Assembly: GCA_964354545.1 (NCBI GenBank)
Contig: CAYHAE010000005.1
Span: forward strand, 12,414 to 76,413
Source: an uncultured Planctomycetia bacterium
GTDB lineage: Bacteria > Omnitrophota > Gorgyraeia > 2-01-FULL-45-10 > JAHFGN01
Direction of reading: 5' to 3'
DNA length: 64,000 nt
The notes beneath the pieces were generated by a model that saw only the letters and a list, made by a program, of their open reading frames with translations, was not told the DNA's origin and ran no database searches. The first letter of the stretch is position 1. Each line of letters begins with the position of its first letter. Position numbers and translations under genes: made by a program. Below, piece after piece: positions 23,846-49,706 of this stretch.

Positions 23846-23859
23846 TCTTTAGGAGGGAC

Positions 23860-35945: not shown

Positions 35946-37850
35946 ATGAAGGTAAATAAGATAGTCTTTTTCAACACGATACAGGATGCGGACGCATACC
36001 TCATGAAGGTAGGCTCTCGTGTTCCTGAGGACTGCCTCCTCGTTGCGTTGACGCCATCTGTACGGGCGCACCTGAAGAAGAAGGGAATCGCTGCGCAGGA
36101 CACCGCGTCTTATTTCACGAATGACTCGCACAAGGAGCTTTTGGAAAAGACGAAGAACGCGGTGGACTGGATGAGGACCAAGGCCGCGTTCGCCGACCTT
36201 GGCCTCGGTGTCCGGCGCGCGTATGGCGATGCGTTCGTCTATTGCACGCGGCGCGTCATTACCTATTGCCTGTGGGTGACGGAGGTCGTTTCACACGCGG
36301 TCGCGGCGCACCGCGCCGACGTGCTCGTCGCGGCCCGTTCCGGCGCGAGGCCCGTCGCGAGCCTCTACGTGGAGCCTGACGAGCGCTATGTGGGCGAGAT
36401 CGTGTACGAGATCGCGCTCGCAAAGGGTCTCGGATTTGAGGAGATCTCCGAAGGAGGCGGCCGACGCGCAATGCGGCCGTGGACAAGGGCTCTCGGCCGG
36501 CTCCGGTTCCGTTCGTGCGCGTCATTCATTGTACGGTATGTGAGATTCCGGCTGTGGGCGCTTGGGATACAGGCGCAGAGCGCATTCACGCGAAAGAGGC
36601 CCGCGTTCTATACCACACGTCTCTACCAGATGGACAGGCTCGCAGGAAGGATCCAGGGTGAATATGAGGGGGGACGGCTGCGCCTTTTGAGAAGTTCCGC
36701 CATACCCTCTTTTCCGATCCCCCACGGCCTGTTGCGGGCCCTGTTTCCAAAGTTTGCGGAGGCGATCATCTCGCAGAAAAAAGTCCTCGAACTCATCGAA
36801 CGTGAGATGTGCGGGAATGCGGAGCTCTTCTCCCACAAGGGCATTTCTTACGGGCGCCTCGTCTCACAGAAGATACGCAATAACCTTGCGGACCACGTGA
36901 TCGGGATGAATGTGTGGACGATCGCACTCGGCCGTTTCATCGATGCGATACGTCCGCGCTCTATCCTCTCGAACGGGACGAGGGACGACGACGTCATCAT
37001 CGCCGAGCTCTGCCGCGAGAAGAAGATCCCCGCCGTCCTCATCAGCCACGGGTCTCATATCCGGCCGAAGAACGAATATGAGACGATAGAGTGGGGTGAG
37101 CACGGGAGGCTGCTCCTGAGAGGCCCCTTTTCGCACTTTGTATTGCAGACCCCCGTTTCAGAAGGGTATCTCGAGACATTTCCCACGTCCGGTTCAATTG
37201 TAAAGACCGGCCCTCTCATTTGGGGTAAACCCATCAACCGGGAAAGGAGCAAGGCGCTCTTTACGACGATGTTCGGCACTTACAAAGAAGTGAAGATCAT
37301 CGTTCACGCAGGCACGCCGAAACCGAATAACGCTCTCCGTTTCTATGTCTACGAGACGTCGGACGAGTATATCCGCGCGGTGTGTGACCTCGCCGATGTC
37401 GCTGCGAAGGTCCCTAACACCATTCTTATAGTCAAATTCAGGCCAACGGCCGACATCTCCGTAGAGGGAATGCAGGCGCTCGTTCCTTTTCGAGACAACG
37501 TGAGGCTGAGCGTGGGAGAGCCGTTCCTCGACGTCCTTGGGATGGCAGACCTGCTCGTGAGCTTCTCATCAACGACGATCGAGGAGGCGCTCCAAAACCG
37601 GATCCCCGTATTGCTCTATGGCGGAGACGGGAGGTATCAACACATATCTGCTCAGGTGATCGAACCTGGAAGCGATGTGCGGCCGTCTGCGGTGTACCAG
37701 AGCAGAAAGAAAGAAGATCTCGAGTATGCGCTGCGCAGTATCGTGCAGTTGAATATCGACGGCAGGAACAGGGATAGACACCTCTTCGAGCCGTATATCT
37801 ACCCCGAGAGCGCGCGCAGGCCGTTGGCAGACGCTTTGACCCGCGCGTGA
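35946..37850 (+). CDS. Large hypothetical protein (634 aa); C-terminal motif reminiscent of TagB/TagF-type (CDP-alcohol) glycero/glycosylphosphotransferases
   Basis: The C-terminal segment is VLGMADLLVSFSSTTIEEALQNRIPVLLYG (compare LITDYSS in TagF-like enzymes). No other family is assignable. The start has an AAGGGA RBS. Confidence 0.45.
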   Translation: MKVNKIVFFNTIQDADAYLMKVGSRVPEDCLLVALTPSVRAHLKKKGIAAQDTASYFTNDSHKELLEKTKNAVDWMRTKAAFADLGLGVRRAYGDAFVYCTRRVITYCLWVTEVVSHAVAAHRADVLVAARSGARPVASLYVEPDERYVGEIVYEIALAKGLGFEEISEGGGRRAMRPWTRALGRLRFRSCASFIVRYVRFRLWALGIQAQSAFTRKRPAFYTTRLYQMDRLAGRIQGEYEGGRLRLLRSSAIPSFPIPHGLLRALFPKFAEAIISQKKVLELIEREMCGNAELFSHKGISYGRLVSQKIRNNLADHVIGMNVWTIALGRFIDAIRPRSILSNGTRDDDVIIAELCREKKIPAVLISHGSHIRPKNEYETIEWGEHGRLLLRGPFSHFVLQTPVSEGYLETFPTSGSIVKTGPLIWGKPINRERSKALFTTMFGTYKEVKIIVHAGTPKPNNALRFYVYETSDEYIRAVCDLADVAAKVPNTILIVKFRPTADISVEGMQALVPFRDNVRLSVGEPFLDVLGMADLLVSFSSTTIEEALQNRIPVLLYGGDGRYQHISAQVIEPGSDVRPSAVYQSRKKEDLEYALRSIVQLNIDGRNRDRHLFEPYIYPESARRPLADALTRA

Positions 37851-37869: not shown

Positions 37870-39687
37870 ATGAAAAAAAATACGACATTTCCCACAGTGT
37901 GGTTCTTCCTGAAACAGTACCGGGCCATGTACGCCATCATCCTCTTCGTACTGCTCGCAGACGCGCTCTTTGAGAACATGACCATCGCGGTGCTCCTGCC
38001 GCTCCTGCAGTCGTTCCTCGGCCAGACGAGCGGTCTCACGCGGGGAGGCCTCTTCGCGTTTATCGCGAACCTCATCGGGCGCCTCCCCTTCGGCGACCCC
38101 GTCATCAGCACATGTATCCTCGCCCTCGTGCTCGTGGCCGCGAAGGAGGCGCTCGCGTTCATCCGCGAGGTCCTCGTGTCCGGGTACAGCGTGGCGAAGG
38201 TGATGAGCGATGCGAAATTGAAGGTCTTCGAGAAGTATGCCCGTTCCGATTACCAGTTCTTCCTCGACAGTAAACAGGGCGCGCTTGTCTACAATGCGCT
38301 CGTCGCGACCGCGCGGCTCGGGAACTGCCTGCTCTACATACCGCAGCTGGCGACCGCGCTATTGCTGATACTGTCGATCGGCATCGTGCTCATGGCCATA
38401 TCGGTGCGTCTCACGCTCATGCTGCTTGTCGTGGGACTTGTCTATAGCGTGGCCACCCACGTGCTTGCGAAGAAGGTGTCATACGGCATGGGCAAAGAGA
38501 AGACAGAGGCGAGCACTGACTCGCAGGTGATCACCAACGAGTTTATCGACGGGATCAAGCAGATCAGGACCTCCGGGACATCGAATTTCTGGCTTGCCCG
38601 TTTCAGAGGGCCTGTCAAGAGGTTAGAGAGGGTCTTTATCAGGAATGCGGCCTTGGTGGCCGCTCCCGGAAGGGTGATGGAGCTCATGCCGGTCGTATTC
38701 CTGGTGGGCATCACGCTCGTCCTGAGATACTGGAGCAAGGTATCCTCCGAAGGGATCCTGTCCAATCTCGCGGTCATCGGCGTGTACGCATTCGCCCTCT
38801 ACAGGCTCGTGCCGCACCTTACCTCCCTCGGACGGTTGAGGATGCAGATTATGGAGACCTTGCCTGACGTCGAGCTCCTCCATGTCCTTCTTCAGAAGAA
38901 GACCGCCAGTATCGCATACGGCGAAAGAGAGCTGCGTAACCTTGAAAGGGAGATACGATTCGAAGGCGTGACCTTCGGTTATAAGGGGAAGAAGGATGTC
39001 TTAAAAGACGTGAGTTTCGCGATCGAAAAAGGTGCCACCGCAGCGCTCGTGGGAGAGTCCGGGGTCGGGAAATCCACGATCGTGAACCTCCTTATGAGAT
39101 TGTTTGACCCTGACAGCGGGAGGATCACCATCGACGGCACAGACTTAAAGGACCTCACGTACGACACGCTCACGAGGATGATCGCGGTCGTGAGCCAGGA
39201 GACGTTCATATTCAACGGTACCGTCAGGGAGAACATCGCCTTCGGGGCGCACGACGTGCCGCCAGGCGACGTCGTTGCCGCGGCCACGCTCGCGTACGCG
39301 GATGAGTTCATAAGGCTCCTTCCTCAAGGGTACGAAACGATCGTTGGCGACAAGGGGTTGAAGCTTTCCGGAGGCCAGAGGCAGCGCATCGCGATCGCCC
39401 GTGCAATACTTCGCGATCCGCAGGTGCTCATCCTCGACGAGGCGACGAGCTCCCTGGACCACAACTCGGAACTCATCGTCCAGAGCGCGATCAACAATAT
39501 ATCGAGAGACAGGACGACGCTCGTGATCGCCCACAGGCTTTCGACAGTGATGAGCGCCGACAAGATCGTCGTGCTCCACGGCGGCCGGATCGTCGAAGAA
39601 GGGACGCACGGTGAACTGATGGGAAAGAGCAGTGTCTATAAGGGCCTCTACGAAGATCAGACGGTCGGGGCGGGGAGAGAGGGTTAA
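37870..39687 (+). CDS. ABC exporter, fused transmembrane and ATP-binding domains (MsbA-like lipid/glycan exporter type)
   Basis: A six-helix N-terminal transmembrane domain is present. Walker A is GESGVGKST. The signature is LSGGQRQRIAIARAIL. Walker B is ILILDEATSSLD. Confidence 0.85.
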   Translation: MKKNTTFPTVWFFLKQYRAMYAIILFVLLADALFENMTIAVLLPLLQSFLGQTSGLTRGGLFAFIANLIGRLPFGDPVISTCILALVLVAAKEALAFIREVLVSGYSVAKVMSDAKLKVFEKYARSDYQFFLDSKQGALVYNALVATARLGNCLLYIPQLATALLLILSIGIVLMAISVRLTLMLLVVGLVYSVATHVLAKKVSYGMGKEKTEASTDSQVITNEFIDGIKQIRTSGTSNFWLARFRGPVKRLERVFIRNAALVAAPGRVMELMPVVFLVGITLVLRYWSKVSSEGILSNLAVIGVYAFALYRLVPHLTSLGRLRMQIMETLPDVELLHVLLQKKTASIAYGERELRNLEREIRFEGVTFGYKGKKDVLKDVSFAIEKGATAALVGESGVGKSTIVNLLMRLFDPDSGRITIDGTDLKDLTYDTLTRMIAVVSQETFIFNGTVRENIAFGAHDVPPGDVVAAATLAYADEFIRLLPQGYETIVGDKGLKLSGGQRQRIAIARAILRDPQVLILDEATSSLDHNSELIVQSAINNISRDRTTLVIAHRLSTVMSADKIVVLHGGRIVEEGTHGELMGKSSVYKGLYEDQTVGAGREG

Positions 39688-39786
39688 GGTAGGGTTATGG
39701 AAGGTTATGGGAGGTTACGAGTCCGGCATGCGCACTGCAACCTTACGTAACCTTAAGTAACATTCCGTAACCTTATGTAACCTCAG
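39682..39786. repeat. Palindromic array of tandem 10-bp repeats (4x RRGGTTAYGR, spacer, 5x GTAACCTTAN)
   Basis: The left arm at 39682-39720 is GGGTTAAGGT AGGGTTATGG AAGGTTATGG GAGGTTACGA. The right arm at 39738-39786 is CAACCTTAC GTAACCTTAA GTAACATTCC GTAACCTTAT GTAACCTCAG. The arms are reverse complements, have a 10-bp period, and lie immediately upstream of the RBS of the 39806 gene. Confidence 0.55.
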
Positions 39787-39805: not shown

Positions 39806-40573
39806 ATGGATCTAAAGACAAGGCTCAAGGCAGGCGGGGTGACGATAGGTTCCTGGGTCACGCTTTACCATACATCCATCGCGGAGATAATGGCAAAGGC
39901 AGGATTTGATTGGCTCACGGTGGATATGGAGCACTCCTCGATAACGCTCGATCAGGCCCAGCATCTCATACAGGTGATAGAGCTTTCAGGCATCGCGCCC
40001 CTGGTGCGCGTTGGCGAGAATGACGCCGCGCTCATAAAGAGGGTGATGGACTCGGGCGCACACGGCGTCATCGTCCCTATGGTGAATACGAAGGACGATG
40101 CCCTGAGGGCCGTCTCTTCGGTGAGGTACCCTCCGCGGGGCACGCGGGGGGTAGGGCTTGCGAGGGCCCAGGGCTATGGGTTCGAGTTCCAGAAGTACAA
40201 GACATGGGCGAATAAGGGAACCATCCTCATCGTCCAAATAGAACACATCAACGCGGTGGAGAACCTCGATGAAATACTGGCGGTTGACGGCGTCGATGGC
40301 TTTATCGTGGGACCCTACGACCTCTCGGGTTCCATGGGAGTCCCGGGAGAGCTGGGGCACCCAAAAGTAAGGAGCGCTCTCAAAAGGATAATGACGGTCG
40401 CGAGACGCCATAAGGCGGTGCCGGGATTTCACATCGTCCCTCCCGATCCCGCACTCGCGGCGGAGAAGATAAGGGAAGGTTACCGTTTCCTCGGGCTTAG
40501 CTTCGACGCGTACTTTTTGGGAACGATGTGCAGGGAAGGGCTCTCCATGATAAGGAAGAAGGTGAGGAGATGA
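39806..40573 (+). CDS. HpcH/HpaI-family class II pyruvate aldolase
   Basis: The family N-terminus LKAGGVTIGSWVTLYHTSIAEIMAKAGFDWLTVDMEHS is present, with the catalytic Arg context RYPPRGTRGVG. An AGGAGA RBS precedes the start. Confidence 0.8.
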   Translation: MDLKTRLKAGGVTIGSWVTLYHTSIAEIMAKAGFDWLTVDMEHSSITLDQAQHLIQVIELSGIAPLVRVGENDAALIKRVMDSGAHGVIVPMVNTKDDALRAVSSVRYPPRGTRGVGLARAQGYGFEFQKYKTWANKGTILIVQIEHINAVENLDEILAVDGVDGFIVGPYDLSGSMGVPGELGHPKVRSALKRIMTVARRHKAVPGFHIVPPDPALAAEKIREGYRFLGLSFDAYFLGTMCREGLSMIRKKVRR

Positions 40574-41355
40574 GGACCGTAGGGATCATACCGGCGCGCA
40601 TGGCATCGACTCGCTTTCCCGGAAAGCCGCTCGCGAGGATATGCGGCATCCCCATGATAGGCCATGTCTACGCGAGGAGCGCGATGTCACGGAACCTCGA
40701 CGCGGCCTACATTGCGACGTGCGACAAGGAGATCGCGGACTACGCCTCTTCAATAGGCTGCACGCCGATCATGACAGCCGTGACGCACGAACGGGCATCC
40801 GACAGGGCAGCGGAGGCCATGCTCGCCATAGAGCGCATGACGGGGACGAGGGTGGACATCGCGGTGATGGTCCAGGGCGATGAACCCCTGCTCTATCCCG
40901 AGATGATCGACGAAGCGATAAGGCCGATGCGGGAGGATCGTTCGGTCCGGGTGGTGAACCTGATGTCTGCGCTGCGGTCGAAAGAGGAGCAAGGCGACCC
41001 CAACATCGTGAAGGTAGTCGCCGACCTCAAGGGCGATGCGCTCTATTTTTCGAGAGAGCCCATCCCTTCTGGAAAGAAGGTGAAGGGCGAGGCCGGGTGC
41101 GCATATAAACAAGTGGCCATCATACCGTTCAGGCGCGATTCTCTTTTAAGTTTCTATGAGCTGGAGCCCACGCCGCTCGAGGCCGTCGAATCCGTCGATA
41201 TGCTGCGGTTCTTAGAGCACGGACATAGGGTAAGGATGGTGGTGACGAAATTCGAGACCTGCGGCGTCGATACGCCGGAGGACCTGAAGAAGGTAGAGAA
41301 GTTGATGGAGCGCGATCCGCTCTTTTTGAAGTACAGGGAGACCGTGTTGAAATGA
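40570..41355 (+). CDS. KdsB-family cytidylyltransferase (CMP-3-deoxy-ulosonate synthetase-like)
   Basis: The CTP_transf_3/KdsB signature is [33 protein letters not shown], with ...VQGDEPL. The start was trimmed to the ATG at 40570, which overlaps the upstream TGA. Confidence 0.8.
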
Positions 41356-41963
41356 GAAGCCGAATCCGCACGATCATAAAGATCCTCATAGGGGAGATCG
41401 AAGAATGGTGGGTGCACCTCTTTATTCAGAATATACCGGGGAGAGCGGGCCTTGTGATAAGGAGGTTCTGGTGGCGCGGCAGACTACGCGAATCTTCCGT
41501 ATTCTCCCTGTATCCGGAGTGCGTGATCACGGGCGCCGAGAGGATCTCCATGGGGAAGGACGTGATCGTATCCCGCCGCACGTGTCTCTATGCGCACGAT
41601 GACGGCGTGATCGCGATCGGGAACAGGGCCAGTTTCAATAGCGGCGTTATCGTGAGCGCGGCAGACGGCGGCCGGGTCACCATCGGCAGCAACGTCCTTG
41701 TCGGGCCCAATGTCGTGATGCGTTCGCGCAATCACGTCCACTCGAGAAAGGACATCCCCATTCGCGACCAGGGGCACATGGGAGGCCCGATCGTAATAGG
41801 CGACGATGTGTGGATCGGCGCGAACGCCGTCATACTGCCTGACGTGACTATAGGCAGCGGCGCCGTGATAGGAGCAGGGGCGGTGGTGACGAAAGACGTG
41901 CCGGGGTATGCGCTCGCGGGCGGAGTGCCCGCGAAGGTCATACGTGAGGATTGTAGAAAGTAA
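41352..41963 (+). CDS. Hexapeptide-repeat (LbH) acetyltransferase
   Basis: Hexapeptide repeats ([43 protein letters not shown]) are present. There is an ATGA overlap with the upstream gene. Confidence 0.75.
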
Positions 41964-41979
41964 ACGATCGAGGTCATGT

Positions 41980-43047
41980 ATGAAGAAAGAGATCTATAAT
42001 GTGGGGATTGCCGGGTACGGTGTTGTGGGGAAGAGGCGGAGGGAGTTCATAGACAGGCATCCGAACCTGAAGACGACAGCCGTCTGTGACCAGTATTTCA
42101 AGACGTCCGGTGTCCTGCCCGACGGCGTGCGCTTTCATCCGCACTATAGCTCGCTCCTCAAAGAAGACATCGACGTATTGTTCGTGAGCCTCCCGAACTA
42201 TCTTGCCAGCGAGGTGACGATCGCCGGCCTCGAACGAGGAATACACGTATTCTGTGAAAAGCCGCCGGGACGAGATCTCCGGGATATCGAGCAGGTCATC
42301 GAGGCGGAGAAGCGCCATCCGGGTATCCTTCTCAAGTATGGATTCAATCACCGATATCACGATTCCGTGCGCGAGGCGCTTCGTATCGTGAGGTCCGGCG
42401 AACTCGGCGAGATCGTGAATTTGCGTGGCGTGTACGGCAAGAGCAAGATCATCCCGTTCTCGGGAGGCTGGCGCGCGGAGAGGAAGTACTCAGGAGGCGG
42501 GATCCTCCTCGACCAGGGTATCCACATGGTGGACCTCATGCGCCTCTTCTGCGGGGATTTTGTGGAGGTGAAGAGCTATGTCTCCAACAACTATTGGAAG
42601 CACGATGTCGAAGACAACGCCTATGCGCTCATGAAAGACGCGAAGGGCAGGATCGCATTCCTCCATTCAAGCGCCACGCAGTGGCAGCACCGTTTTGCCC
42701 TGGAGATCGCGTTCACCGAAGGTTATGTGGAATTACAGGGCATCCTGTCGGGCTCCAAGAGTTATGGCGAGGAGAAGCTGGTCAAGGGGAGACGGGATGA
42801 GTCAGAAACGGGCACTGCCAAGGAAGAGGCGATTACGTACCTCGAGGACAACTCATGGCGCGACGAGATAAACGAATTTGCCGACGCGATCGTGAGCGGC
42901 ACCCCGATCGAGTTCGGCACGAGCCGGGAGGCGCTCGACACGATGAGGCTCGTCTACACGATCTACTGGTCAGATCCTGAATGGCGCAAGAAGTTCGCCA
43001 TCGAAAACCCCGGCCGCGCCATGGTCGGGGACACAGCGAGGGTATAG
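41980..43047 (+). CDS. Gfo/Idh/MocA-family oxidoreductase
   Basis: The Rossmann motif is YNVGIAGYGVVGKRRREF. The family motif CEKPPGRDLRDIEQVIEAEKRHPGILLKYGFNHRYH is present. The start was trimmed to the ATG at 41980, after a GAGG RBS. Confidence 0.75.
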   Translation: MKKEIYNVGIAGYGVVGKRRREFIDRHPNLKTTAVCDQYFKTSGVLPDGVRFHPHYSSLLKEDIDVLFVSLPNYLASEVTIAGLERGIHVFCEKPPGRDLRDIEQVIEAEKRHPGILLKYGFNHRYHDSVREALRIVRSGELGEIVNLRGVYGKSKIIPFSGGWRAERKYSGGGILLDQGIHMVDLMRLFCGDFVEVKSYVSNNYWKHDVEDNAYALMKDAKGRIAFLHSSATQWQHRFALEIAFTEGYVELQGILSGSKSYGEEKLVKGRRDESETGTAKEEAITYLEDNSWRDEINEFADAIVSGTPIEFGTSREALDTMRLVYTIYWSDPEWRKKFAIENPGRAMVGDTARV

Positions 43048-43048
43048 A

Positions 43049-43717
43049 ATGGAGAAGAGACTGCTTTCGAATAAACTCACGGCCCTTTTTAACGAGAACA
43101 AGGACCGGAACGGGTACCTCAAGGGCTACTGCCGCTATCTTTCGGATTTGCTGGAAAAGATCGATTACGCATCGATCGAAGCGGTGATGGACTGCCTTGA
43201 AGATGCGCGCACGCGCTCCTCGATCATATTCTTCGCGGGCAACGGCGGCAGCGCTGCGACCGCGTCGCACTTTGCGCAGGACCTGGCGGAAGTAGGGAGG
43301 AAGACCGGGAAGGCCTGTTTCAAGACGATGAGCCTGGCCGACGGCGTCCCTGCCATGACCGCGATTGCGAACGATTACGGATACGACGCCGTCTTCACGG
43401 GGCAGATGTCGGGGCTCTTCAAGGAGCGCGATGTCCTCGTTGCGATCTCGGCGAGCGGGAACAGTCCCAACGTGGTCAAGGCGGTAGAGTATGCGAAGAC
43501 CCTGGGAGGGATCACGATAGGTATGGTGGGGTTCGACGGCGGAAAGCTCGCGCGGATGTGCGACCACGTGATCCACGTCAAGACCCAGTGGGGCGAATAC
43601 GGTCCCGTCGAGGACATCCACCTCGTCTTGGATCATATGATCACGTCCTATTTCGTATTGCAGGGATCCCGCCGGGGCAAGGAGAAGAAGCCGGCCGGCA
43701 CTACGGGGGTCAGATGA
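43049..43717 (+). CDS. SIS-domain sugar-phosphate isomerase, GmhA-like (sedoheptulose-7-phosphate isomerase family)
   Basis: The GmhA-type motif FFAGNGGSAATASHFAQDL is present. It is a single SIS domain of about 220 aa, with SASGNSPNV. Confidence 0.75.
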   Translation: MEKRLLSNKLTALFNENKDRNGYLKGYCRYLSDLLEKIDYASIEAVMDCLEDARTRSSIIFFAGNGGSAATASHFAQDLAEVGRKTGKACFKTMSLADGVPAMTAIANDYGYDAVFTGQMSGLFKERDVLVAISASGNSPNVVKAVEYAKTLGGITIGMVGFDGGKLARMCDHVIHVKTQWGEYGPVEDIHLVLDHMITSYFVLQGSRRGKEKKPAGTTGVR

Positions 43718-44478
43718 ACCAAAATGAGCGGCGCTACTTCAGCGAGAAAGAACTCGAGCTCTATGATGCCACGTCGCTGCCGCTTTCGTATCTTGTGAAG
43801 TCACTGTGGGTCAAGATGCGCAGGCAGACATGGGGCCGGTTCACCGATCGGGGCGCGAGGTTCGTGTGGACTGCAAGCGCGGTGAGCGATGCGACAGGGC
43901 CGGCCGATAATGTCAGGAATTACGTCGAGCGGGAGAATGTCCGCTCGATGCTAAAAAAGGTTGTCCGGAACTATCCCGTTAATTCCGCATGCGAAGTGGG
44001 ATGCGGATACGGCCGGCTCACCATGGTCTTGAAAGAGTTTACGCAAAAGGTTGCAGGTTTTGAGCGAGAAAAGATCTTGGTTGATATTGCCAAACCCCTC
44101 TTGCCCGCGATAGAGTTTTACCACGTCGAGTCTCTCGACAAGATCTCCGAGCTTGGTATGCAGCCCTTTGATTTTGTGATGATGTGCACGGTCCTGCAGC
44201 ACCTTACTGACGATTTTTGTCAGAAGGTCATCGAGGATATTAAACGGCTTGCCCCCATGGGGCACGTCTTATTAATTGAAAAGACCGAGCCGATCGCAAT
44301 TACAGCAAATACAAAGGACGACACGTCGTTCATCAGCCGGGACCGTTCCGTCGAGACATATACCATGTTGATGAACCCGTTTAAATTAGCCGCGACGGCA
44401 AAACGCATGGCGGAACCAACGTATTTCAATCCCCATCCCGGAACATGTATGTTGTTTAAGAGCCCTTTATTAAAATGA
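43714..44478 (+). CDS. Class I SAM-dependent methyltransferase
   Basis: Motif I is EVGCGYGRLTMVLKEF. The start was trimmed to the ATG at 43714 (ATGA overlap). Confidence 0.65.
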   Translation: MNQNERRYFSEKELELYDATSLPLSYLVKSLWVKMRRQTWGRFTDRGARFVWTASAVSDATGPADNVRNYVERENVRSMLKKVVRNYPVNSACEVGCGYGRLTMVLKEFTQKVAGFEREKILVDIAKPLLPAIEFYHVESLDKISELGMQPFDFVMMCTVLQHLTDDFCQKVIEDIKRLAPMGHVLLIEKTEPIAITANTKDDTSFISRDRSVETYTMLMNPFKLAATAKRMAEPTYFNPHPGTCMLFKSPLLK

Positions 44479-45398
44479 AGATCATGGACGGGAAAAAGAT
44501 AGTGATAGGGCCGTCTACCTTCGGCGAGACGGACCGTAGGCCTCTCGAGAGATTATGCGATGCGGGTTATGATGTCGTCGAAAATCCGTTTAAACGGAAG
44601 TTGACAAAAGAAGAATTGATCGGCCTGCTCAGCGATAAAGTGGTCGGGCTGATAGCCGGGCTGGAGACCGTTGACCGGGAGGTGATGGAAAAATCAAAAT
44701 TGAAGGTTGTCTCCCGCTGCGGTTCAGGCATGTCCAATGTTGATGCACAGGCGGCGAGGGAGCTGGGCATCAGAGTTTATTCCACGCCCGATTCCCCCAC
44801 CGCGGCCGTCGCAGAGCTCACGATGTGCGCGCTCCTCTCGCTCGTGCGTTCATTCCCTCACATGAACTACTCAATGCATCAACGTAAGTGGGGGAAACGT
44901 ATAGGTGTTCAGCTAAGCGGCAAAAACATCGCGATCATAGGATTCGGCAGAATAGGCCGAAAGGTGGCCCAGCTCGTGAGGGCATTCGGTGCGCATGTAG
45001 TCGCTGTTGACCCCGCGCTTTCAGGCACAATAGACGGTGTAACGGTTGTCGATTGTGACACTGCCCTGAAGAAAGCCGATATCGTTGCCCTCCACGCAAG
45101 CGGAGACCGGCCCCTGCTCGGTGAACGCGAATTTAAACTATTGAAAAAGGGAGCGTATGTGCTCAATGCGGCACGAGGCGGGTTGATCGACGAGAAGGAG
45201 CTCGCGAAGGCTATTGACAGGGGACAGGTGGCCGGTGCATGGCTGGATACGTTTGCCGAAGAACCCTATACGGGGCCTCTGTGCGACTACGAGAACGTTA
45301 TTCTGACCCCACATGTCGGTTCTTATACTCTGGAGTGCAGGCGGCAGATGGAATTGGAATCGGTGAAAAATCTCCTCGCGGGGCTTCACAATGAATAA
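44475..45398 (+). CDS. D-isomer-specific 2-hydroxyacid dehydrogenase (PGDH-like)
   Basis: The NAD-binding motif is IAIIGFGRIGRKVAQLVRAFGAHVVAVDP. The catalytic RGGLIDE...H region is present. Confidence 0.8.
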   Translation: MKIMDGKKIVIGPSTFGETDRRPLERLCDAGYDVVENPFKRKLTKEELIGLLSDKVVGLIAGLETVDREVMEKSKLKVVSRCGSGMSNVDAQAARELGIRVYSTPDSPTAAVAELTMCALLSLVRSFPHMNYSMHQRKWGKRIGVQLSGKNIAIIGFGRIGRKVAQLVRAFGAHVVAVDPALSGTIDGVTVVDCDTALKKADIVALHASGDRPLLGEREFKLLKKGAYVLNAARGGLIDEKELAKAIDRGQVAGAWLDTFAEEPYTGPLCDYENVILTPHVGSYTLECRRQMELESVKNLLAGLHNE

Positions 45399-46176
45399 AA
45401 GACAGATATCTCCACGAGGGCTTGAGGATCTTCTGGGCCTGGCACAAAAGACGGCAAAGGAGGCGTTTAGAGCGATCGCGGGCGATCTCGCTATGACGAG
45501 GGCGATCGAGAGCGAAGCGAGGCGCGATATTAAAGTCGTGGCGGATAAGAAGCTCGAGGGGCTTATTATTCAAAGACTGAGAAAGGCGTCCGGCTTTTCT
45601 ATTTTTTCAGAGGAAAGCGGTGCGTTTTCCGGCGCGTCAGGCTGCGGGGATTTCAGGTGGATCATCGACCCTCTGGACGGGAGTTTCAATTTTTCCCGAG
45701 GCATCCCCATGTGCTGTATTTCCATCGCCCTCTGGCGCGGCATGCACCCATTTCTCGGCGTGGTCTATGATTTCAATCGAGATGAAACCTTCGCCGGTAT
45801 AGACGGTAAAGGCGCGTGGCTCAACGGCAGGCCGATCAGGGTAAGCGACGTCGCCAAGACATCGAAGGCTGTCGTATGCACAGGCTTTCCGATAAGTACG
45901 GATTTCTCCAAAGAAGGCCTCGAGCATTTTGTCCGGACTGTAAAAAGATTCAAGAAAATCCGTATGCTCGGCTCCGCGGCCCTTTCACTGGCATACGTCT
46001 CCTGCGGCAAGGCGGATTGTTACCAGGAAGATGATATAAGGATATGGGACGTTGCCGCCGGCATAGTTTTGGTAAAGGCGGCAGGCGGTACGATTAAGAT
46101 GAGGCCTTCCGGCAAGGAAAACGCATTTCATGTAAGGGCGGCGGGCAACCGCTCCCTCTTTACTGATGGTGAATAA
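45391..46176 (+). CDS. Inositol monophosphatase-family phosphatase (second IMPase/CysQ-like gene)
   Basis: The metal-binding motif IIDPLDGSFNFSRGIPMCCISIAL is present, with SEE upstream. Confidence 0.75.
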   Translation: MNKRQISPRGLEDLLGLAQKTAKEAFRAIAGDLAMTRAIESEARRDIKVVADKKLEGLIIQRLRKASGFSIFSEESGAFSGASGCGDFRWIIDPLDGSFNFSRGIPMCCISIALWRGMHPFLGVVYDFNRDETFAGIDGKGAWLNGRPIRVSDVAKTSKAVVCTGFPISTDFSKEGLEHFVRTVKRFKKIRMLGSAALSLAYVSCGKADCYQEDDIRIWDVAAGIVLVKAAGGTIKMRPSGKENAFHVRAAGNRSLFTDGE

Positions 46177-48163
46177 TATGAAATCGAACTCACATACAGA
46201 AAGGCCTCGCGCAGATAACGCCCTATGGGTGTGCTGGGAAGAACCGACACCGTTGCCGGATGAGAACGCGACCATAGTAAGCTTTTTGCGGCCGGGCAGG
46301 GAAGACGCGTTGAGGAAGAATTTCAAGGGAACTTTGATCTCGGCACGCGAGAATGCGCCTCGCGTGAAAGAAAAGGCTCGCGCGATCTACATAAACCTCA
46401 TCGCCAGGATCGGCGCGACTGCCCTTGGAGACGGGGGTACATTACGAAAGGTGCTTGAAAACGATGACGGTGTCAGCCTCTGGTGGTTTCACAAGGTCTC
46501 CGAGAGGGATTGCGAGAGCGACGCGACCTTCAGGCTGATCACGGAGATATTGATCATACGCTCTGTGGCTGATTCGATGAAGTGCAAAGACATGTTTTTG
46601 TGCGGCGGCTGCAAAGAGGTAGCGCAGGTCCTAGGCGATCTCTATCTCATAAAGGAGATCCACTGTAAGCGGATGTATCCATCCGGCTGCTATATCGCGA
46701 AAGGAGCGCTGTCGAGAATAAAGTATTTTTGGCAGTTCCTATCAAAGTGGATGGCCGTGAAGCGCGCGGTCAAAAGCCTGCCCAGGAACCATTTCGACGC
46801 GGTATTTTCCGGATTCTGGGATTGGAGCGTGAGGGAGGAAAAAGAGACGGGCAGGCTGAATGACCGCTTTTTTAAATCGTTGCCGCAGAAACTGGCCGAA
46901 AAGGGTCTTGTGACAGGGTGGTTTCTATGGTTTGACCCTCACCGCGAGCCCGGCTCCGCGACCCGGAGCATGCGCGATGTTTTGATGCCGGTCGGCCGCC
47001 ACGACACTATGGTCATACTGCAGCGATTTATCACGTTCACCGATGTGGTGCAGGCGCTCATTAACCTTAAGGGCCTGTGCGTATTTTTACGTTTTTTGAG
47101 AGATAAGAATTTCCGCGGCGCTTTTCGTGAGGAGGGAATAAATTTTTTGCCCATCTTAAAAGTTCCTCTCGTGCACGGCTTTCTCAATTCAAGCATACCG
47201 CACCAGGAGCTGGTTTACCGCGCGTCTAAAAGGGCTTTTATGGCGTACAGGCCGGAGGTATCGATAAGCTTTTTGGAGCTGTTTTTACATTCGAGGGCGT
47301 TCTATTGCGGAGGGAGGAAGGGGTCTGCCGGCACGGTGCATTGCGCCGTTCAACATGCGAGCTACAGCCGCGAGAAGACATTTGCGGTGCTTCATCCCGA
47401 TAGCGAATACAGGGGGGAGCCGGATAGCTGCCCGGTGCCCGCCCCGGATTATGTATTTGCGATGGGGGACCTGGGCAGGGAGATCTTTATCGAAAGCGGT
47501 TTTCCGAAAGAGAAGGTTTTTCTCACGGGCTCACCGCGGTACGAGCACATTACGCAGGCCGGGAGATACCACCGCGACAAATGGGGAGATGTAAAAAACA
47601 TCCTCATGGTGACCACCCTCAATGTCGATCTAGAGATGGAGATGGTCGATGCCGTGTACGCTGCGACGGAGGGACTTTCCGGTGTAAAGCTATTTCTCAG
47701 GAGCCACCCCTTTGCGAGGATGGATGAGCATCCGGGCTTCCGCATCTATAAGGACAGGGTCCGCCACACTCAGGGGACGCTCGATGAAAACCTGAAAGAC
47801 GCCGACCTCATCATATTTTCTTACTCAACGGTTGCCGAGGAGGCCATAATAGCGGGCCTCCCTGCGTGGCAATGGTGTTCGACCTCCTACAACGGTTCCG
47901 TCTTCCGCGATATCAAGGTCGTCCCCTCGTTCTGCTCGGTTCGCGATCTGAGGGAATCGCTGAAGAAGTTCATCGAAGAACCGCGTTCGTTTATGCCCGA
48001 TATGGAAACAGGACAGGGTGTGGCGCGAAAATGTTTTTACGCAGCCGACGGAAAGGCGAGCGATAGGATCGCGGATATTGTGCACGGTTCAATGGGGCTA
48101 TTTTTCAATTCTCACACGGCCTCCGTCCGGGCTGGCAGCAAAGAAGAGGTGTATAGCCCGTGA
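46166..48163 (+). CDS. Large hypothetical protein (665 aa) with TagB/TagF-like C-terminal motif
   Basis: The C-terminal segment is LKDADLIIFSYSTVAEEAIIAGLPAWQW, similar to the 35946 protein. The start is the ATG at 46166, or at 46178. Confidence 0.45.
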   Translation: MVNNMKSNSHTERPRADNALWVCWEEPTPLPDENATIVSFLRPGREDALRKNFKGTLISARENAPRVKEKARAIYINLIARIGATALGDGGTLRKVLENDDGVSLWWFHKVSERDCESDATFRLITEILIIRSVADSMKCKDMFLCGGCKEVAQVLGDLYLIKEIHCKRMYPSGCYIAKGALSRIKYFWQFLSKWMAVKRAVKSLPRNHFDAVFSGFWDWSVREEKETGRLNDRFFKSLPQKLAEKGLVTGWFLWFDPHREPGSATRSMRDVLMPVGRHDTMVILQRFITFTDVVQALINLKGLCVFLRFLRDKNFRGAFREEGINFLPILKVPLVHGFLNSSIPHQELVYRASKRAFMAYRPEVSISFLELFLHSRAFYCGGRKGSAGTVHCAVQHASYSREKTFAVLHPDSEYRGEPDSCPVPAPDYVFAMGDLGREIFIESGFPKEKVFLTGSPRYEHITQAGRYHRDKWGDVKNILMVTTLNVDLEMEMVDAVYAATEGLSGVKLFLRSHPFARMDEHPGFRIYKDRVRHTQGTLDENLKDADLIIFSYSTVAEEAIIAGLPAWQWCSTSYNGSVFRDIKVVPSFCSVRDLRESLKKFIEEPRSFMPDMETGQGVARKCFYAADGKASDRIADIVHGSMGLFFNSHTASVRAGSKEEVYSP

Positions 48164-48197
48164 ACTTTTCCGATCGAACGGCCTTAAGGACACACGA

Positions 48198-49706
48198 ATG
48201 AGAGTGCTTTTCATAAATTTCAACCTTGGCTCTACCGCGGGGATAAACAATGGTATCGCGATCCTATCCGCGGTGTTAAAAGCAAAAGGACATCGGGTAG
48301 GGCTTCTTTTTCTGTGCGAAGAGCTCGGGTACAACTTTGATCTCTCCCGTATGCAGGGGGACGTAGAGGATTTCAAGCCGGATATCATAGGGATTTCTCT
48401 CATGGAGCCTCAGAGCAAATATATGGAGGAGTTCTGCAAGGATGCACGGCGTTATTATAAGGGATTCATAGTATGCGGCGGCCCGTATCCCACAATGGCG
48501 CCGGACGATGTCCTTTCTGTCAAAGACGTTGACGCCGTATGTGTCGGTGAAGGGGAGGGGGCTCTCGTCGATCTCGCCGAGGCGCTGGAGAGAGGCGAGG
48601 ACTATCGCCATATCAGGAATATATGGTCGAGGTCTGCCGAGGGCACGATCGTCAAGAACAGGCTCCGTCCCTTTGTCGATCTCGCGACATTGCCGCCTGA
48701 GGATAAAGAGCTCTTCGATATCGAAACGATCGTACGTGTGAAGAATTACCAGCTTGAGATGATGCTCGGCAGGGGTTGTATTTATCAATGCGCATACTGC
48801 ATCAACAAATCATATATCACGCGGTATCAAGACCTATGCGAAAGGCCCGTGGGACTCCGCGATTACGTGCGGGTAAAGGACGTTGATACGGTGATACAGG
48901 AGATCAAGGGAACAACGCGGCGCCATCCGACGATCAGGAAACTCGCTTTTATCGACGATAACTTCCTGATGTACGAGGGATTTCTCGAGGATTTCTGTCT
49001 TCACTACAAGGAAGAGGTGCGAGTGCCTTTCATGTGCAATGTGAATCCCATGTCGTTCACACAAAAGAAGGGTGCGCTTCTCAAGGAGGCGGGATGCGAT
49101 GACATACGTTTTGGGGTCGAAAGCGGGAGCGCGAGGATCAAGCGGGATATCATGAAACGGCACATTACAAACAGGAGCGTGGTGGAGGCGTTCAAGGCAG
49201 CCCGGGACCTCGGCCTCATGACGAGCTCTTTTAACATGATCGGCCTCCCCGGGGAGACGAAGGACGAGGTCTTCGAAACCATCCGGCTGAATGCAGCGAT
49301 CTTGCCTGACACGGTGAAGGTGATGACCTTCTATCCGTTCAAGAACACCCCCCTCTACGACAGGTGCGAGGAGCTCGGGCTGATAGATTACGAAAAGAAA
49401 CACGGGCTCGATAACTATGACACGGTAACGTGTTTGAAATTTCCTCCCGCACACCGGCTTTTTTTGAAGAAGATCCAGATCGTATTTAACGTATACCTTA
49501 ATCTGTTTCTCGGCGGCGAAACGGCGTCAGAATACGCGCCGCATGCACGAGAGATCGAGGAGATGGACGAGGAAAGGTGGGGTTCGTACGATTTCGATTC
49601 AGTCGACCGGGCACTCTCCGAAAAACTACGCAGGCGCGGGGTGGTGCATTATTCAAAATTCATGAACAGGAGCCTCGCGGTAAAATTTCCAAGCAAGCAC
49701 GTGTAG
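48198..49706 (+). CDS. Cobalamin (B12)-binding radical SAM enzyme
   Basis: The start was trimmed to the ATG at 48198 (MRVLFINFNLGSTAGINNGIAILSAVLKAKGH). The radical SAM motif is MLGRGCIYQCAYCIN. Confidence 0.85.
   Translation: MRVLFINFNLGSTAGINNGIAILSAVLKAKGHRVGLLFLCEELGYNFDLSRMQGDVEDFKPDIIGISLMEPQSKYMEEFCKDARRYYKGFIVCGGPYPTMAPDDVLSVKDVDAVCVGEGEGALVDLAEALERGEDYRHIRNIWSRSAEGTIVKNRLRPFVDLATLPPEDKELFDIETIVRVKNYQLEMMLGRGCIYQCAYCINKSYITRYQDLCERPVGLRDYVRVKDVDTVIQEIKGTTRRHPTIRKLAFIDDNFLMYEGFLEDFCLHYKEEVRVPFMCNVNPMSFTQKKGALLKEAGCDDIRFGVESGSARIKRDIMKRHITNRSVVEAFKAARDLGLMTSSFNMIGLPGETKDEVFETIRLNAAILPDTVKVMTFYPFKNTPLYDRCEELGLIDYEKKHGLDNYDTVTCLKFPPAHRLFLKKIQIVFNVYLNLFLGGETASEYAPHAREIEEMDEERWGSYDFDSVDRALSEKLRRRGVVHYSKFMNRSLAVKFPSKHV

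Follow-up and report, generated by a model that had tools for sequence, protein, structure and literature searches.

A widespread aldolase-cytidylyltransferase cassette that may supply a CMP-activated 2-ulosonic acid sugar other than Kdo

Which sugar is activated where a class II pyruvate-type aldolase adjoins a KdsB-like cytidylyltransferase (CT)? The question arises in a 64-kb window (the whole stretch of 64,000 nucleotides that was analysed), for which a preliminary description had proposed an eight-gene module making a second acidic CMP-sugar by a non-canonical route. Our analyses suggest that the block represents one form of an uncharacterised cassette of wide occurrence, which would make a CMP-activated 2-ulosonic (alpha-keto) acid sugar different from Kdo and hand it to surface-glycan assembly; we assign this reading a probability of about 0.55.

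The preliminary gene calls held. All eight open reading frames were recovered in the same direction on the plus strand, at or near the positions first called, and Pfam and NCBIfam confirmed the families named (Table 1). Packing is tight, with overlaps of 4–11 nt or gaps of 1–16 nt at the junctions, and terminator-like sites within the block were not enriched (8 versus 7.4 expected from shuffled sequence). Translation of the CT most likely begins at 40570, because an ATGA overlap joins the gene to the aldolase stop codon and because this start matches the 261-aa NCBI version. For the Gfo/Idh/MocA oxidoreductase (Gfo), the ATG at 41980 is the most likely start, since eight orthologues align only from residues 22–32 and a GAGG lies upstream. 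A ninth gene, encoding a GT-B-fold protein, overlaps the phosphatase stop codon by 11 nt, is translationally coupled and belongs to the block.

Table 1. Genes of the block and its downstream neighbours (window coordinates)
Gene product	Position	Strand	Domain or model evidence
Aldolase	39806-40573	+	HpcH_HpaI PF03328, 141 bits
Cytidylyltransferase (CT), KdsB-like	40570-41355 (longest ORF from 40528)	+	CTP_transf_3 PF02348, 147 bits
Acetyltransferase	41352-41963	+	Hexapep; LacA/WbbJ/Maa-like, left-handed beta-helix
Oxidoreductase Gfo/Idh/MocA, NAD(P)	41980-43047 (longest ORF from 41908)	+	Pfam
Isomerase, GmhA-like SIS	43049-43717	+	SIS_2/SIS; GmhA model 110 bits, cut-off 209
SAM-dependent methyltransferase	43588-44478 (start 43558, 43588 or 43714)	+	Methyltransf_25/11/23
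D-2-hydroxyacid dehydrogenase, PGDH-like	44475-45398	+	2-Hacid_dh_C, 155 bits
Phosphatase, IMPase/FBPase family	45391-46176	+	Inositol_P, 166 bits
GT-B-fold protein, ninth gene	46166-48163	+	No Pfam match; TIGR04326 89 bits, below cut-off
B12-binding radical SAM enzyme	48018-49706	+	B12-binding and Radical_SAM

The aldolase stays below every NCBIfam equivalog cut-off (HpaI, 199 against 369; RhmA, 178 against 441; GarL, 175 against 393), and its closest solved structure is YfaU (167 bits). Catalytic H43, R68, E146 and D172 are kept in 101/101 clade members. The preliminary description had proposed to place the enzyme phylogenetically; in a neighbour-joining tree its clade was monophyletic and did not group with HpaI, RhmA or GarL, to which it shows 31–41% identity (45–60% among those three). 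By sequence, it qualifies as a catalytically intact class II (HpcH/HpaI-fold) 2-oxoacid aldolase of its own clade. A degradative HpaI/RhmA/GarL-type enzyme that landed in a glycan cluster by chance would explain the family-level similarity, but neither the scores far under all three cut-offs and the separate branch nor the lack of catabolic partners and the translational coupling to the CT in most loci; we disfavour this explanation as hardly conceivable.

The aldolase has the fold, the metal-binding E146 and D172 and the catalytic His and Arg in common with HpaI, RhmA (YfaU), GarL and SwHKA (PMC10099721), a family whose members produce 2-keto-3-deoxy sugar acids and accept hydroxypyruvate. 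The context here is biosynthetic, whereas that of HpaI, RhmA and GarL is catabolic. Its pocket residues are polar (S16, S44, N72, R79, H147, Y171, H209). Y171, equivalent to HpaI A174, occurs in 101/101 clade members, and H209, equivalent to HpaI L212 beside the donor site, in 100/101. In SwHKA, a hydroxypyruvate-using aldolase, an aromatic residue in place of a conserved leucine touches C3 of the donor (PMC10099721); equating His209 with that leucine rests on the alignment to HpaI L212 and YfaU L216. Because His209 replaces Leu212 beside the donor site, the donor may be other than plain pyruvate, possibly hydroxypyruvate, and the product may not be a 3-deoxy sugar.

The CT retains R10, R15, K19, QGDEP and D235, and with them, as judged from the alignment, the chemistry of nucleotide and metal handling. 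The residues that bind the sugar, in contrast, have changed throughout the clade: the exchanges D50C, S74R, T125N, R164K, H181Q, Y185I, Y187F, E210D, Q211M and W216E are found in 52–65 of the 65 clade members, each except R164K in at least 60. RH.G.Y.YR, named as the substrate-binding, Kdo-binding motif (PMC7717453), has become KQ.C.I.FR and the conserved EQLR motif has become DMLR in nearly all 65. An ordinary CMP-Kdo supply, with the CT as a normal KdsB/KpsU for LPS or capsule, kdsA elsewhere and the aldolase as a bystander, would agree with the best solved relatives, KpsU (1GQ9 being the closest structure) and KdsB. It would also agree with the NCBIfam scores: the CT passes two 'subfamily' models that bear the name 3-deoxy-manno-octulosonate cytidylyltransferase, and it reaches 292 bits on the KdsB 'subfamily' model NF009905 (cut-off 255). 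However, apart from the replaced motifs, the CT falls short of the kdsB equivalog TIGR00466 (150.2, cut-off 155.2), and its clade is present in archaea, CPR/Patescibacteria and a Syntrophomonas species. Furthermore, Pfam or NCBIfam scans of nearly all large plus-strand open reading frames revealed no kdsA, kdsC or kdsD-type gene in the 64 kb, and canonical-signature KdsBs lack the aldolase as a neighbour (see below). This scenario is thus disfavoured as scarcely plausible, and the sequence data argue that the CT is a KdsB-like CTP:ulosonic-acid cytidylyltransferase of a separate clade, not an ordinary CMP-Kdo synthetase.

How general is the pairing? A scan seeded with the aldolase, covering 185,579 species genomes, confirmed at least 556 relatives. 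The best 80 of these, which were kept, span more than 12 bacterial phyla and also include Hadarchaeum, Methanoperedens, Thermoplasmatales, Methanoregula, Woesearchaeota, Patescibacteria and Syntrophomonas wolfei. Among the 45 well-flanked aldolase loci (bacteria, archaea and CPR; at least 6 kb on either side), 43 had a CT gene of the CTP_transf_3 family, which in most cases belonged to this CT clade. A PGDH-like 2-hydroxyacid dehydrogenase was found in 40/45, a second oxidoreductase (SDR or Gfo) in 40/45, and a phosphatase or DHQS-like phospholyase in 38/45. In the CT-seeded reverse test, the aldolase was nearby in 28/44 clade-type CTs versus 0/31 canonical KdsBs (p = 2.5e-9), or 11/14 versus 0/9 where at least 3 kb of flank was available. 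The other 16 of the 44 clade-type CT loci had no aldolase in their available flanks, which for L094 and L165 amount to about 10 kb on each side. On a plasmid of a cultured Acuticoccus strain, aldolase, CT, 'PGDH', HAD and oxidoreductase genes are consecutive and form a minimal operon. Cultured carriers include Acuticoccus sp. I52.16.1 and Nitrosomonas mobilis; in certain sister loci a NeuA-like CT replaces the KdsB-like CT beside the aldolase.

These gene neighbourhoods support the aldolase and the KdsB-like CT as a conserved functional pair, genetically coupled and outside the Kdo pathway, as the preliminary description had suspected; we found no literature on this pairing. Since the aldolase lies outside HpaI, RhmA and GarL, the CT motifs are changed and the pairing is conserved, ordinary CMP-Kdo synthesis would not account for the block, and aromatic catabolism would not do so either. 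The two objections to the earlier proposal that sequence can address, an HpaI-type catabolic aldolase and a CT of CMP-Kdo type, hence fail to refute it. The notion of all eight genes as one module stood only in part. The recurring core is the aldolase, the CT, the PGDH-like dehydrogenase, one more oxidoreductase and one phosphate-removing enzyme, whereas Gfo, SIS and IMPase are marks of one sub-architecture and the acetyl- and methyltransferases are accessory.

Among the core enzymes, the dehydrogenase scores 211 against 454 for the PGDH model TIGR01327 and has the short PGDH 1WWK as its closest structure. It retains the equivalents of R240, E269, H292 and K141, with SerA R60/S61/R62 exchanged for I/A/G; its residues assign it to the PGDH-like D-2-hydroxyacid dehydrogenases, not to the SerA type. 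The nearest structures to Gfo are inositol dehydrogenase, anhydrofructose reductase, DgpA and GFOR, and orthologues with 60–76% identity adjoin the CT in L007, L051, L040, L058, L057 and further loci. The SIS protein matches GmhA structures with 75–100 bits and keeps GmhA S55, S119, S121, S124, D94, H61 and H180, with E65D and Q172E exchanges and R69 lost. SuhB/IMPase structures are nearest to the phosphatase, in place of which related loci have an HAD_2 phosphatase or a DHQS-like phospholyase. In 11 related loci, the DHQS-like enzyme (TIGR04425), which reaches 262 bits against the aroB model, takes the place of the phosphatase. It is mutually exclusive with phosphatases (0/8 versus 47/74, p = 7e-4), again so in CT-seeded loci, which points to a phosphorylated, DAHP-like intermediate.

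This homologue of 3-dehydroquinate synthase and other sugar phosphate cyclases could also speak for a cyclitol pathway, in which Gfo, IMPase and SIS would make an inositol-like or carbocyclic unit for activation by the CT, with the aldolase peripheral. The IMPase family of the phosphatase and an inositol 2-dehydrogenase as the best solved relative of Gfo would fit as well. However, the cyclase homologue occurs in sister loci only, the window holds neither a DHQS-like gene nor an inositol-phosphate synthase, and the aldolase-CT coupling would be ignored. To our knowledge, moreover, the characterised CTP_transf_3 enzymes all act on ulosonic acids, and we consider a cyclitol product quite improbable.

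The route that we favour assigns inferred roles to Gfo, the GmhA-like isomerase, the PGDH-like dehydrogenase and the IMPase; its product may be 3-deoxy or 3-hydroxy and may bear one or two carboxylates. The GmhA-like isomerase would supply a sugar-phosphate aldehyde to the aldolase, which would join it to the enolate of a 2-oxoacid (pyruvate or, because of His209 at the HpaI Leu212 position, possibly hydroxypyruvate) to give the alpha-keto-acid head group. The IMPase would strip the terminal phosphate in a KdsC-like step, performed in sister loci by an HAD phosphatase or a DHQS-like cyclising phospholyase, and the CT would form the CMP-sugar. Gfo and the 2-hydroxyacid dehydrogenase may serve redox tailoring or donor supply, the methyl- and acetyltransferases may decorate the sugar, and the GT-B protein may transfer it once activated.

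Some observations count against this route, among them the 16 clade-type CT loci with no aldolase in their available flanks. The D-2-hydroxyacid dehydrogenase has no obvious substrate under a plain 'pyruvate + aldose-P' scheme, and the preliminary scheme of pyruvate plus a GmhA-made heptose phosphate, then oxidation, likewise leaves it unexplained. The contiguous Gfo-SIS-dehydrogenase trio plus IMPase is more economically explained by an oxidation-first sequence, unlikely on balance but a serious rival, in which two dehydrogenations and not C–C bond formation create the alpha-keto acid. SIS would convert sedoheptulose-7-P to heptose-7-P, Gfo would oxidise C1 to heptonate-7-P and the dehydrogenase C2 to hept-2-ulosonate-7-P, IMPase would release the free ulosonic acid and the CT would activate it. 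The four genes would be used nearly in gene order and explained at least equally well, no aldolase being needed, and the contiguity of the trio in many phyla would be accounted for. The other architecture would fit too (SDR, a PF04199 metal-hydrolase-like or Pgl-like protein, dehydrogenase, HAD phosphatase), as would aldolase-less L084 and L165, with PF04199, CT, dehydrogenase and a glucose-dehydrogenase-like Zn-ADH. This route would provide the DHQS-like enzyme, found in sister loci in place of the phosphatase, with a DAHP/S7P-like substrate, and the aldolase His209 would suit a 3-hydroxy-2-oxoacid.

Yet oxidation first leaves no necessary role for the aldolase, the CT's most tightly linked partner, which could only edit stereochemistry (retro-aldol/aldol at C3–C4) or exchange the aldehyde part. 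It fails for L033, L043, L044, L098, L102 and L106, which have no dehydrogenase and retain aldolase, CT and SDR, most of them also an HAD phosphatase; the keto acid there must therefore come from the aldolase. The SDR of the common architecture is most like LegB, RmlB and GalE, i.e., nucleotide-sugar enzymes, not aldose-phosphate dehydrogenases, and we know of no glycan ulosonic acid made by such a route. Head-group formation by the aldolase is our favoured reading. Overall, the interpretation of the preliminary description is partly supported.

The acetyltransferase, with galactoside and LPS O-acetyltransferases as best NCBIfam matches and homologues in about 9–12 of 81 aldolase loci, is probably an accessory O-acetyltransferase. 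The methyltransferase is 53% identical to the gene at the same position in L007, and several other methyltransferase families are represented in related loci. For the GT-B protein, an AlphaFold2 model (pLDDT 92, pTM 0.91) gave UDP-GlcNAc 2-epimerases, TagF and GT4 enzymes as top Foldseek matches (E = 4e-10), and in both L007 and L058 the gene sits at the equivalent place. The model makes it a candidate transferase for the activated sugar, although homologues also occur outside the cassette, e.g., in L164, which counts against a cassette role. The B12-binding radical SAM enzyme, with weak homologues (22–32% identity) in 12/81 aldolase loci, is a possible accessory (C-)methylase.

The proposed pathway shares the logic of the Kdo pathway (KdsD, KdsA, KdsC, KdsB/KpsU), i.e., an SIS isomerase, a C–C-forming 2-keto-acid step, a phosphatase and a KdsB-fold CT with the same catalytic residues. 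In contrast to that pathway, a metal-dependent HpcH-fold 2-oxoacid aldolase takes the place of PEP-dependent KdsA, the isomerase is GmhA-like and not KdsD-like, and the phosphatase is IMPase or HAD_2 instead of KdsC. The sugar pocket of the CT has been remodelled, two dehydrogenases are added, and the cassette also occurs in organisms without LPS. Nonulosonic acid pathways (NeuB/LegI/PseI with NeuA/LegF/PseF), which are also represented in the window at 10062-15053, likewise yield an alpha-keto acid sugar in CMP-activated form for use in surface glycans. Their synthases, however, depend on PEP and on a free 2-acetamido sugar that is liberated from a nucleotide sugar, and the aldolase module is without the NeuB/NeuC/aminotransferase set. 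ElaABC, which makes CMP-8-epi-legionaminic acid, unites a CT with a Gfo enzyme and another reductase, and these two redox enzymes work on the CMP-ulosonic acid (PMC13656337). By analogy, this clustering of Gfo/Idh/MocA, a second NAD(P)H enzyme and CT may be a precedent for the cassette, although the second enzyme is a classical SDR in ElaABC and a D-2-hydroxyacid dehydrogenase here. The uncharacterised pairing of aldolase and CT recurs across many phyla of bacteria, candidate phyla among them, and across archaea.

The block comprises all eight genes that the preliminary description had grouped into one module, each with the domain assigned to it there (Pfam, NCBIfam), together with a ninth gene that overlaps the stop codon of the IMPase gene. 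For the cytidylyltransferase (CT) we take position 40570 as the start, because the NCBI version of the protein has 261 amino acids; the start codon then overlaps the aldolase stop as ATGA. Homology to orthologues places the start of the Gfo/Idh/MocA oxidoreductase (Gfo) at 41980. Homology of the methyltransferase to its orthologue in the related locus L007 begins upstream of the stop codon of the SIS isomerase gene (43588-43717). Unless the ATG at 43714 is the methyltransferase start, the two genes may thus share 55-160 nt, read in different frames. Terminator-like sites occur within the block at chance level. The 118 nt that separate the ABC exporter gene from the aldolase gene contain a long imperfect hairpin (39681-39783). 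Each arm of the hairpin consists of three ~10-nt repeats (AAGGTTAYGG / CGTAACCTTA); its dG is -46.9 kcal/mol with a z-score of -4.4, and it has neither a T-run nor an Rfam match. A role in processing, stability or regulation within the operon is conceivable.

Features of the gene block and of its surroundings in the window
Feature	Position	Strand	Domain, family or content
Aldolase	39806-40573	+	HpcH_HpaI
Cytidylyltransferase (CT)	40528/40570-41355	+	CTP_transf_3; passes NCBIfam KdsB 'subfamily' models, not kdsB equivalog
Acetyltransferase	41352-41963	+	hexapeptide; O-acetyltransferases nearest
Oxidoreductase	41908/41980-43047	+	Gfo/Idh/MocA
Isomerase	43049-43717	+	GmhA-like SIS
Methyltransferase	43558-44478	+	SAM methyltransferase
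Dehydrogenase	44475-45398	+	PGDH-like D-2-hydroxyacid dehydrogenase
Phosphatase	45391-46176	+	IMPase family
Ninth gene	46166-48163	+	overlaps IMPase stop
Sulfate activation	7534-10156		APS kinase 7534, sulfate adenylyltransferase 8145, second IMPase-family gene 9281 (CysQ-like position)
Legionaminic-type module, upstream of block	10062-15053		LegB 10062, LegC 11053, NeuD 12201, NeuB 12865, NeuC 13884
CTP_transf_3 gene of legionaminic-type module	18800-19567		CTP_transf_3
Sulfotransferase	25796-27220		
Further CTP_transf_3 genes	32687 and 33574		CTP_transf_3
ABC exporter	37870		MsbA/PglK-like
B12-binding radical SAM enzymes (five)	262, 2393, 29932, 48018, 54593		
SPASM radical SAM enzymes (two)	21224, 22240		

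The block is embedded in a near-continuous run of plus-strand surface-glycan synthesis genes of ~60 kb, which is also rich in glycosyltransferases and nucleotide-sugar enzymes. LegB, LegC, NeuD, NeuB and NeuC of the legionaminic-type module all passed or nearly passed their equivalog cut-offs. As this canonical PEP-dependent module has a CTP_transf_3 gene of its own, the cluster would encode both a PEP-dependent and an aldolase-linked route to acidic sugars, and the block is, as had been claimed, a separate module for a second CMP-activated acidic sugar. The block (39806-48163) holds no gene with a DAHP_synth_1 or NeuB domain; the sole NeuB of the window (12865-13887) belongs to the legionaminic-type module. 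Pfam or NCBIfam scans of nearly all large plus-strand ORFs revealed no KdsA, KdsC or KdsD-type gene in the 64-kb window. From the sulfate-activation genes and the sulfotransferase it follows that the glycan of this cluster is probably sulfated, and the density of radical SAM enzymes, unusual for one glycan cluster, suggests that sugars are C-methylated or otherwise modified by radical chemistry. Between 27474 and 34941, genes for a Gfo/Idh/MocA protein, an Ldh_2 protein (malate/L-lactate dehydrogenase family), a B12-binding radical SAM enzyme, a GDSL esterase, a PseF-like CTP_transf_3 protein and a GT2 fused to a CTP_transf_3 domain form a possible third activated-sugar module.

The aldolase has the HpcH_HpaI fold, with YfaU/RhmA as its best solved relative. 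Its metal ligands and catalytic Arg and His (H43, R68, E146, D172) are invariant in 101/101 cassette aldolases from both of the scans described below. At the same time, it scored far under the equivalog cut-offs for HpaI (199/369), RhmA (178/441) and GarL (175/393). Cassette aldolases share 31-41% identity with RhmA, an HpaI and GarL, as compared with 45-60% among those three, and in a neighbour-joining tree all 101 form a clade that excludes the three references. The protein is thus predicted to be a competent aldolase, yet one distinct from HpaI, RhmA and GarL. Its pocket is polar (S16, S44, N72, R79, H147). At the pyruvate-donor site, the position of HpaI A174 is Tyr in all 101 cassette aldolases and that of L212 is His in 100 of them. 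In SwHKA, use of hydroxypyruvate was ascribed to an aromatic residue that replaces a conserved leucine and touches donor C3 (PMC10099721). We infer that this leucine corresponds to HpaI L212. If this is right, the donor of the aldolase may have a polar group at C3, and the ulosonic acid formed may carry a hydroxyl at C3 instead of being 3-deoxy.

The CT, a CTP_transf_3 protein (Pfam, 147 bits), departs from its canonical relatives at the sugar site. We compared 65 aldolase-linked CTs with E. coli KdsB, KpsU and Coxiella KdsB, and judged the Kdo site by conservation in this clade versus canonical sequences and by published motifs, namely FSR and RH(I/V)G(I/V)YAYR, of which the latter was termed substrate-binding (PMC7717453). 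Catalytic R10, R15 and K19, QGDEP (D100) and D235 are kept in 65/65 clade CTs, and FSR is intact. In contrast to canonical KdsB, 60-64 of the 65 have KQ.C.I.FR in place of RH.G.Y.YR and DMLR in place of the conserved EQLR, and the changes D50C, S74R, T125N, R164K, H181Q, Y185I, Y187F, E210D, Q211M and W216E are almost invariant. A conserved C-terminal extension is common to the aldolase-linked CTs. The CT stays below the equivalog cut-offs of TIGR00466 (150.2 vs 155.2) and NF003948 (193 vs 281) and is accepted by the looser 'subfamily' models NF009905 and NF003952. Because of the altered Kdo motifs and the occurrence of such CTs in archaea, CPR bacteria and Syntrophomonas, together with the sub-equivalog score, we excluded an ordinary CMP-Kdo synthetase.

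The non-canonical route of the preliminary description is hence supported in part. Judged by sequence, the aldolase falls outside aromatic-catabolic HpaI (tree, equivalog scores) and the CT is no ordinary KdsB (motifs, equivalog scores, carriers), which contradicts both of the refuting conditions set there; the particular chemistry proposed would be one possibility.

The pairing of the two genes was borne out by scans from either side. An alignment of the aldolase and its close relatives was searched against one genome per GTDB species and found relatives in at least 556 stretches, of which the best 80 were retained. Among the matches listed were Planctomycetota, Chloroflexota, Nitrospirota, Desulfobacterota, Omnitrophota, Acidobacteriota, Bacteroidota, Campylobacterota, Bdellovibrionota, Ignavibacteria, many Nitrosomonas, Syntrophomonas wolfei and Patescibacteria, and, from the archaea, Hadarchaeum, Methanoperedens, Thermoplasmatales, Methanoregula, Methanomicrobiales and Woesearchaeota. 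Partners were counted by tblastn with the window proteins and all-vs-all ORF clustering at those 45 loci that had 6 kb or more of flank on either side. Here, a cytidylyltransferase (any CTP_transf_3 gene) accompanied the aldolase at 43/45 loci, the PGDH-like dehydrogenase at 40/45, an extended SDR or Gfo enzyme likewise at 40/45, and a phosphatase (HAD_2 or IMPase) or DHQS-like enzyme at 38/45. In the reverse scan, which was seeded with the CT clade and run against metagenome contigs, 28 of 44 clade-signature CTs had an aldolase on their contig and 16 had none, whereas all 31 canonical-signature KdsBs lacked one (0/31; Fisher p = 2.5e-9). With flanks of at least 3 kb only, aldolase presence/absence was 11/3 for clade CTs versus 0/9 for canonical KdsBs. 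Gene neighbourhoods thus show the aldolase and the apparently re-specified CT to be coupled. A cultured marine alphaproteobacterium, Acuticoccus sp. I52.16.1, carries a bare five-gene operon on a plasmid (NZ_CP094833.1, 40686-45138) with aldolase, NeuA-like CT, 'phosphoglycerate dehydrogenase', HAD hydrolase and oxidoreductase. Cultured carriers, among them Nitrosomonas mobilis and Syntrophomonas wolfei subsp. methylbutyratica, and this minimal operon open the cassette to direct testing, for which Acuticoccus is a handy entry point.

Three architectures were seen. In type A, the most frequent, CT and aldolase occur with the dehydrogenase, an SDR, a HAD_2 phosphatase and often a PF04199 metal-hydrolase-like protein; Nitrosomonas loci have a Pgl-like gene in addition. 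Type B comprises the window and loci L007, L036, L040, L046, L051, L053, L057, L058, L067, L093, L112, L113, L116, L120 and L128. It contains aldolase, CT, often a methyltransferase, Gfo, GmhA-like SIS and dehydrogenase, after which comes either an IMPase or an SDR together with a DHQS-like protein above the cut-off of TIGR04425, 'AroB-related putative sugar phosphate phospholyase (cyclizing)'. Type C (L098, L102, L106) combines a divergent aldolase with SDR, CT, acetyltransferase and HAD phosphatase and is devoid of the 2-hydroxyacid dehydrogenase. No HAD, PF04199, SDR-c11 or DHQS-like gene was found in the window. At L004, L006, L028, L031, L040, L045, L052, L058, L093, L113 and L120, the TIGR04425 protein and a classical SDR replace the phosphatase of the cassette. 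Phospholyase and phosphatase never occurred together (0/8 vs 47/74, p = 7e-4), in agreement with the CT-seeded set; the two thus seem to be alternative ways to remove the phosphate from a single intermediate. As the DHQS-like enzyme reaches 262 bits on the aroB model, this shared phosphorylated intermediate is suggested to resemble DAHP. The replacement of the phosphatase hints that some variants turn it into a carbocyclic product. Two aldolase-less loci, L084 (7022-8836) and L165 (7042-8978), encode a GT2 fused to a Zn-ADH/glucose-dehydrogenase-like domain, next to a clade-type cytidylyltransferase and a 2-hydroxyacid dehydrogenase.

Of the remaining enzymes, the dehydrogenase resembles short PGDHs and keeps the catalytic Arg, Glu and His; on TIGR01327 it scores 211 vs a cut-off of 454. 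Since the phosphate-binding R60/S61/R62 of SerA are replaced by I/A/G in most of 63 clade dehydrogenases, it is probably not a 3-phosphoglycerate dehydrogenase, and a true PGDH making 3-phosphohydroxypyruvate was ruled out on the same grounds. The SIS protein keeps S55, S119, S121, S124, D94, H61 and H180 of GmhA, a set that covers phosphate-binding serines as well as catalytic and metal residues, with E65D and Q172E changed and R69 lost (TIGR00441, 110 vs cut-off 209). We take it to be a ketose/aldose-phosphate isomerase, as judged from these residues, with sedoheptulose-7-P as a plausible substrate. Gfo is nearest to inositol dehydrogenase, anhydrofructose reductase, C-glycoside 3-oxidases and GFOR, and the IMPase to SuhB/IMPase/FBPase rather than to CysQ. 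The main rival to an aldolase that builds the sugar puts oxidation first and would use SIS, Gfo, dehydrogenase and IMPase in order, leading from sedoheptulose-7-P via heptose-7-P, heptonate-7-P and hept-2-ulosonate-7-P to the free acid and its CMP-sugar. It accounts for the contiguity of these four genes, provides a DAHP/S7P-like substrate for the DHQS-like enzyme and suits the aldolase-less L084 and L165; however, it reduces the aldolase to an editing role.

The aldolase as builder is favoured because aldolase, CT and SDR persist, in most cases along with a HAD phosphatase, at some loci that lack the dehydrogenase. Furthermore, the type A SDR is like a nucleotide-sugar enzyme and would therefore act after activation, in analogy to ElaA and ElaC, which act on CMP-legionaminic acid (PMC13656337); we count this for the same reading. 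On this favoured route, the aldolase would make an alpha-keto-acid head group on a sugar-phosphate aldehyde, and the phosphatase would then free the sugar, a step at which sister loci would use the cyclising phospholyase instead. The CT would activate the sugar, Gfo and dehydrogenase would tailor it or supply the donor, and the methyl- and acetyltransferases would decorate it. Transfer might fall to the ninth protein as a candidate glycosyltransferase. This protein has no Pfam domain and ~100 homologues, some of them also at loci without the cassette. Its AlphaFold2 model (pLDDT 92) has two Rossmann-like domains, and Foldseek matched it to UDP-GlcNAc 2-epimerase, TagF and GT4 (E = 4e-10, probability 1.0), which predicts a GT-B fold. 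Of two further Pfam-less ORFs of 630-670 aa, 23698-25716 showed no relation to the GT-B protein family in profile comparison, and 35946-37850 matched its C-terminal half weakly (hhalign probability 70%). Phosphonate, teichoic-type CDP-polyol and inositol readings were put aside, as no PEP mutase, IspD/TagD-type enzyme or inositol-phosphate synthase was found.

To our knowledge, every CMP-activated ulosonic acid of known pathway (Kdo, Kdn, sialic, legionaminic and pseudaminic acid and relatives) uses a PEP-dependent synthase. Compared with the Kdo and nonulosonic acid pathways, its closest known counterparts, the cassette has another condensing enzyme, a rebuilt CT pocket and additional dehydrogenases. 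We tentatively propose, at a probability of roughly 0.3, that its product is an undescribed class of CMP-activated sugar acid whose condensing enzyme is an aldolase. It might be a non-3-deoxy hept-2-ulosonic acid ('sedoheptulosonic' type) or a dicarboxylic or branched one that arises from a 2-oxoacid enolate and a sugar-derived carbonyl; the latter would suit the invariant Arg newly present in the CT. At the sister loci with a DHQS-like enzyme, it might be a carbocyclic analogue. We found no literature on HpcH aldolases linked to glycan synthesis or paired with a cytidylyltransferase, and nothing relevant on heptulosonic acid with a cytidylyltransferase or on TIGR04425/TIGR04326. Public names are generic or misleading and should be corrected: the two NCBIfam subfamily models that accept the CT are named '3-deoxy-manno-octulosonate cytidylyltransferase', JGI calls aldolase homologues '2-dehydro-3-deoxyglucarate aldolase', and PGAP names the Acuticoccus dehydrogenase 'phosphoglycerate dehydrogenase'.

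The cassette could also bear on two acidic sugars for which we found no route: a hexulosonic acid in the K3 capsule of E. coli, and Dha, which occurs in algae and plants and for which an activated form had yet to be identified in 2012. With its reach across many bacterial phyla, archaea and CPR, a cassette that relies on an aldolase and on a CT clade of its own would give microbial glycobiology a second logic of biosynthesis and probably also a new monosaccharide. If this holds true, the sugar would be a common, overlooked surface-glycan component in anaerobic bacteria, nitrifiers, CPR bacteria and archaea.
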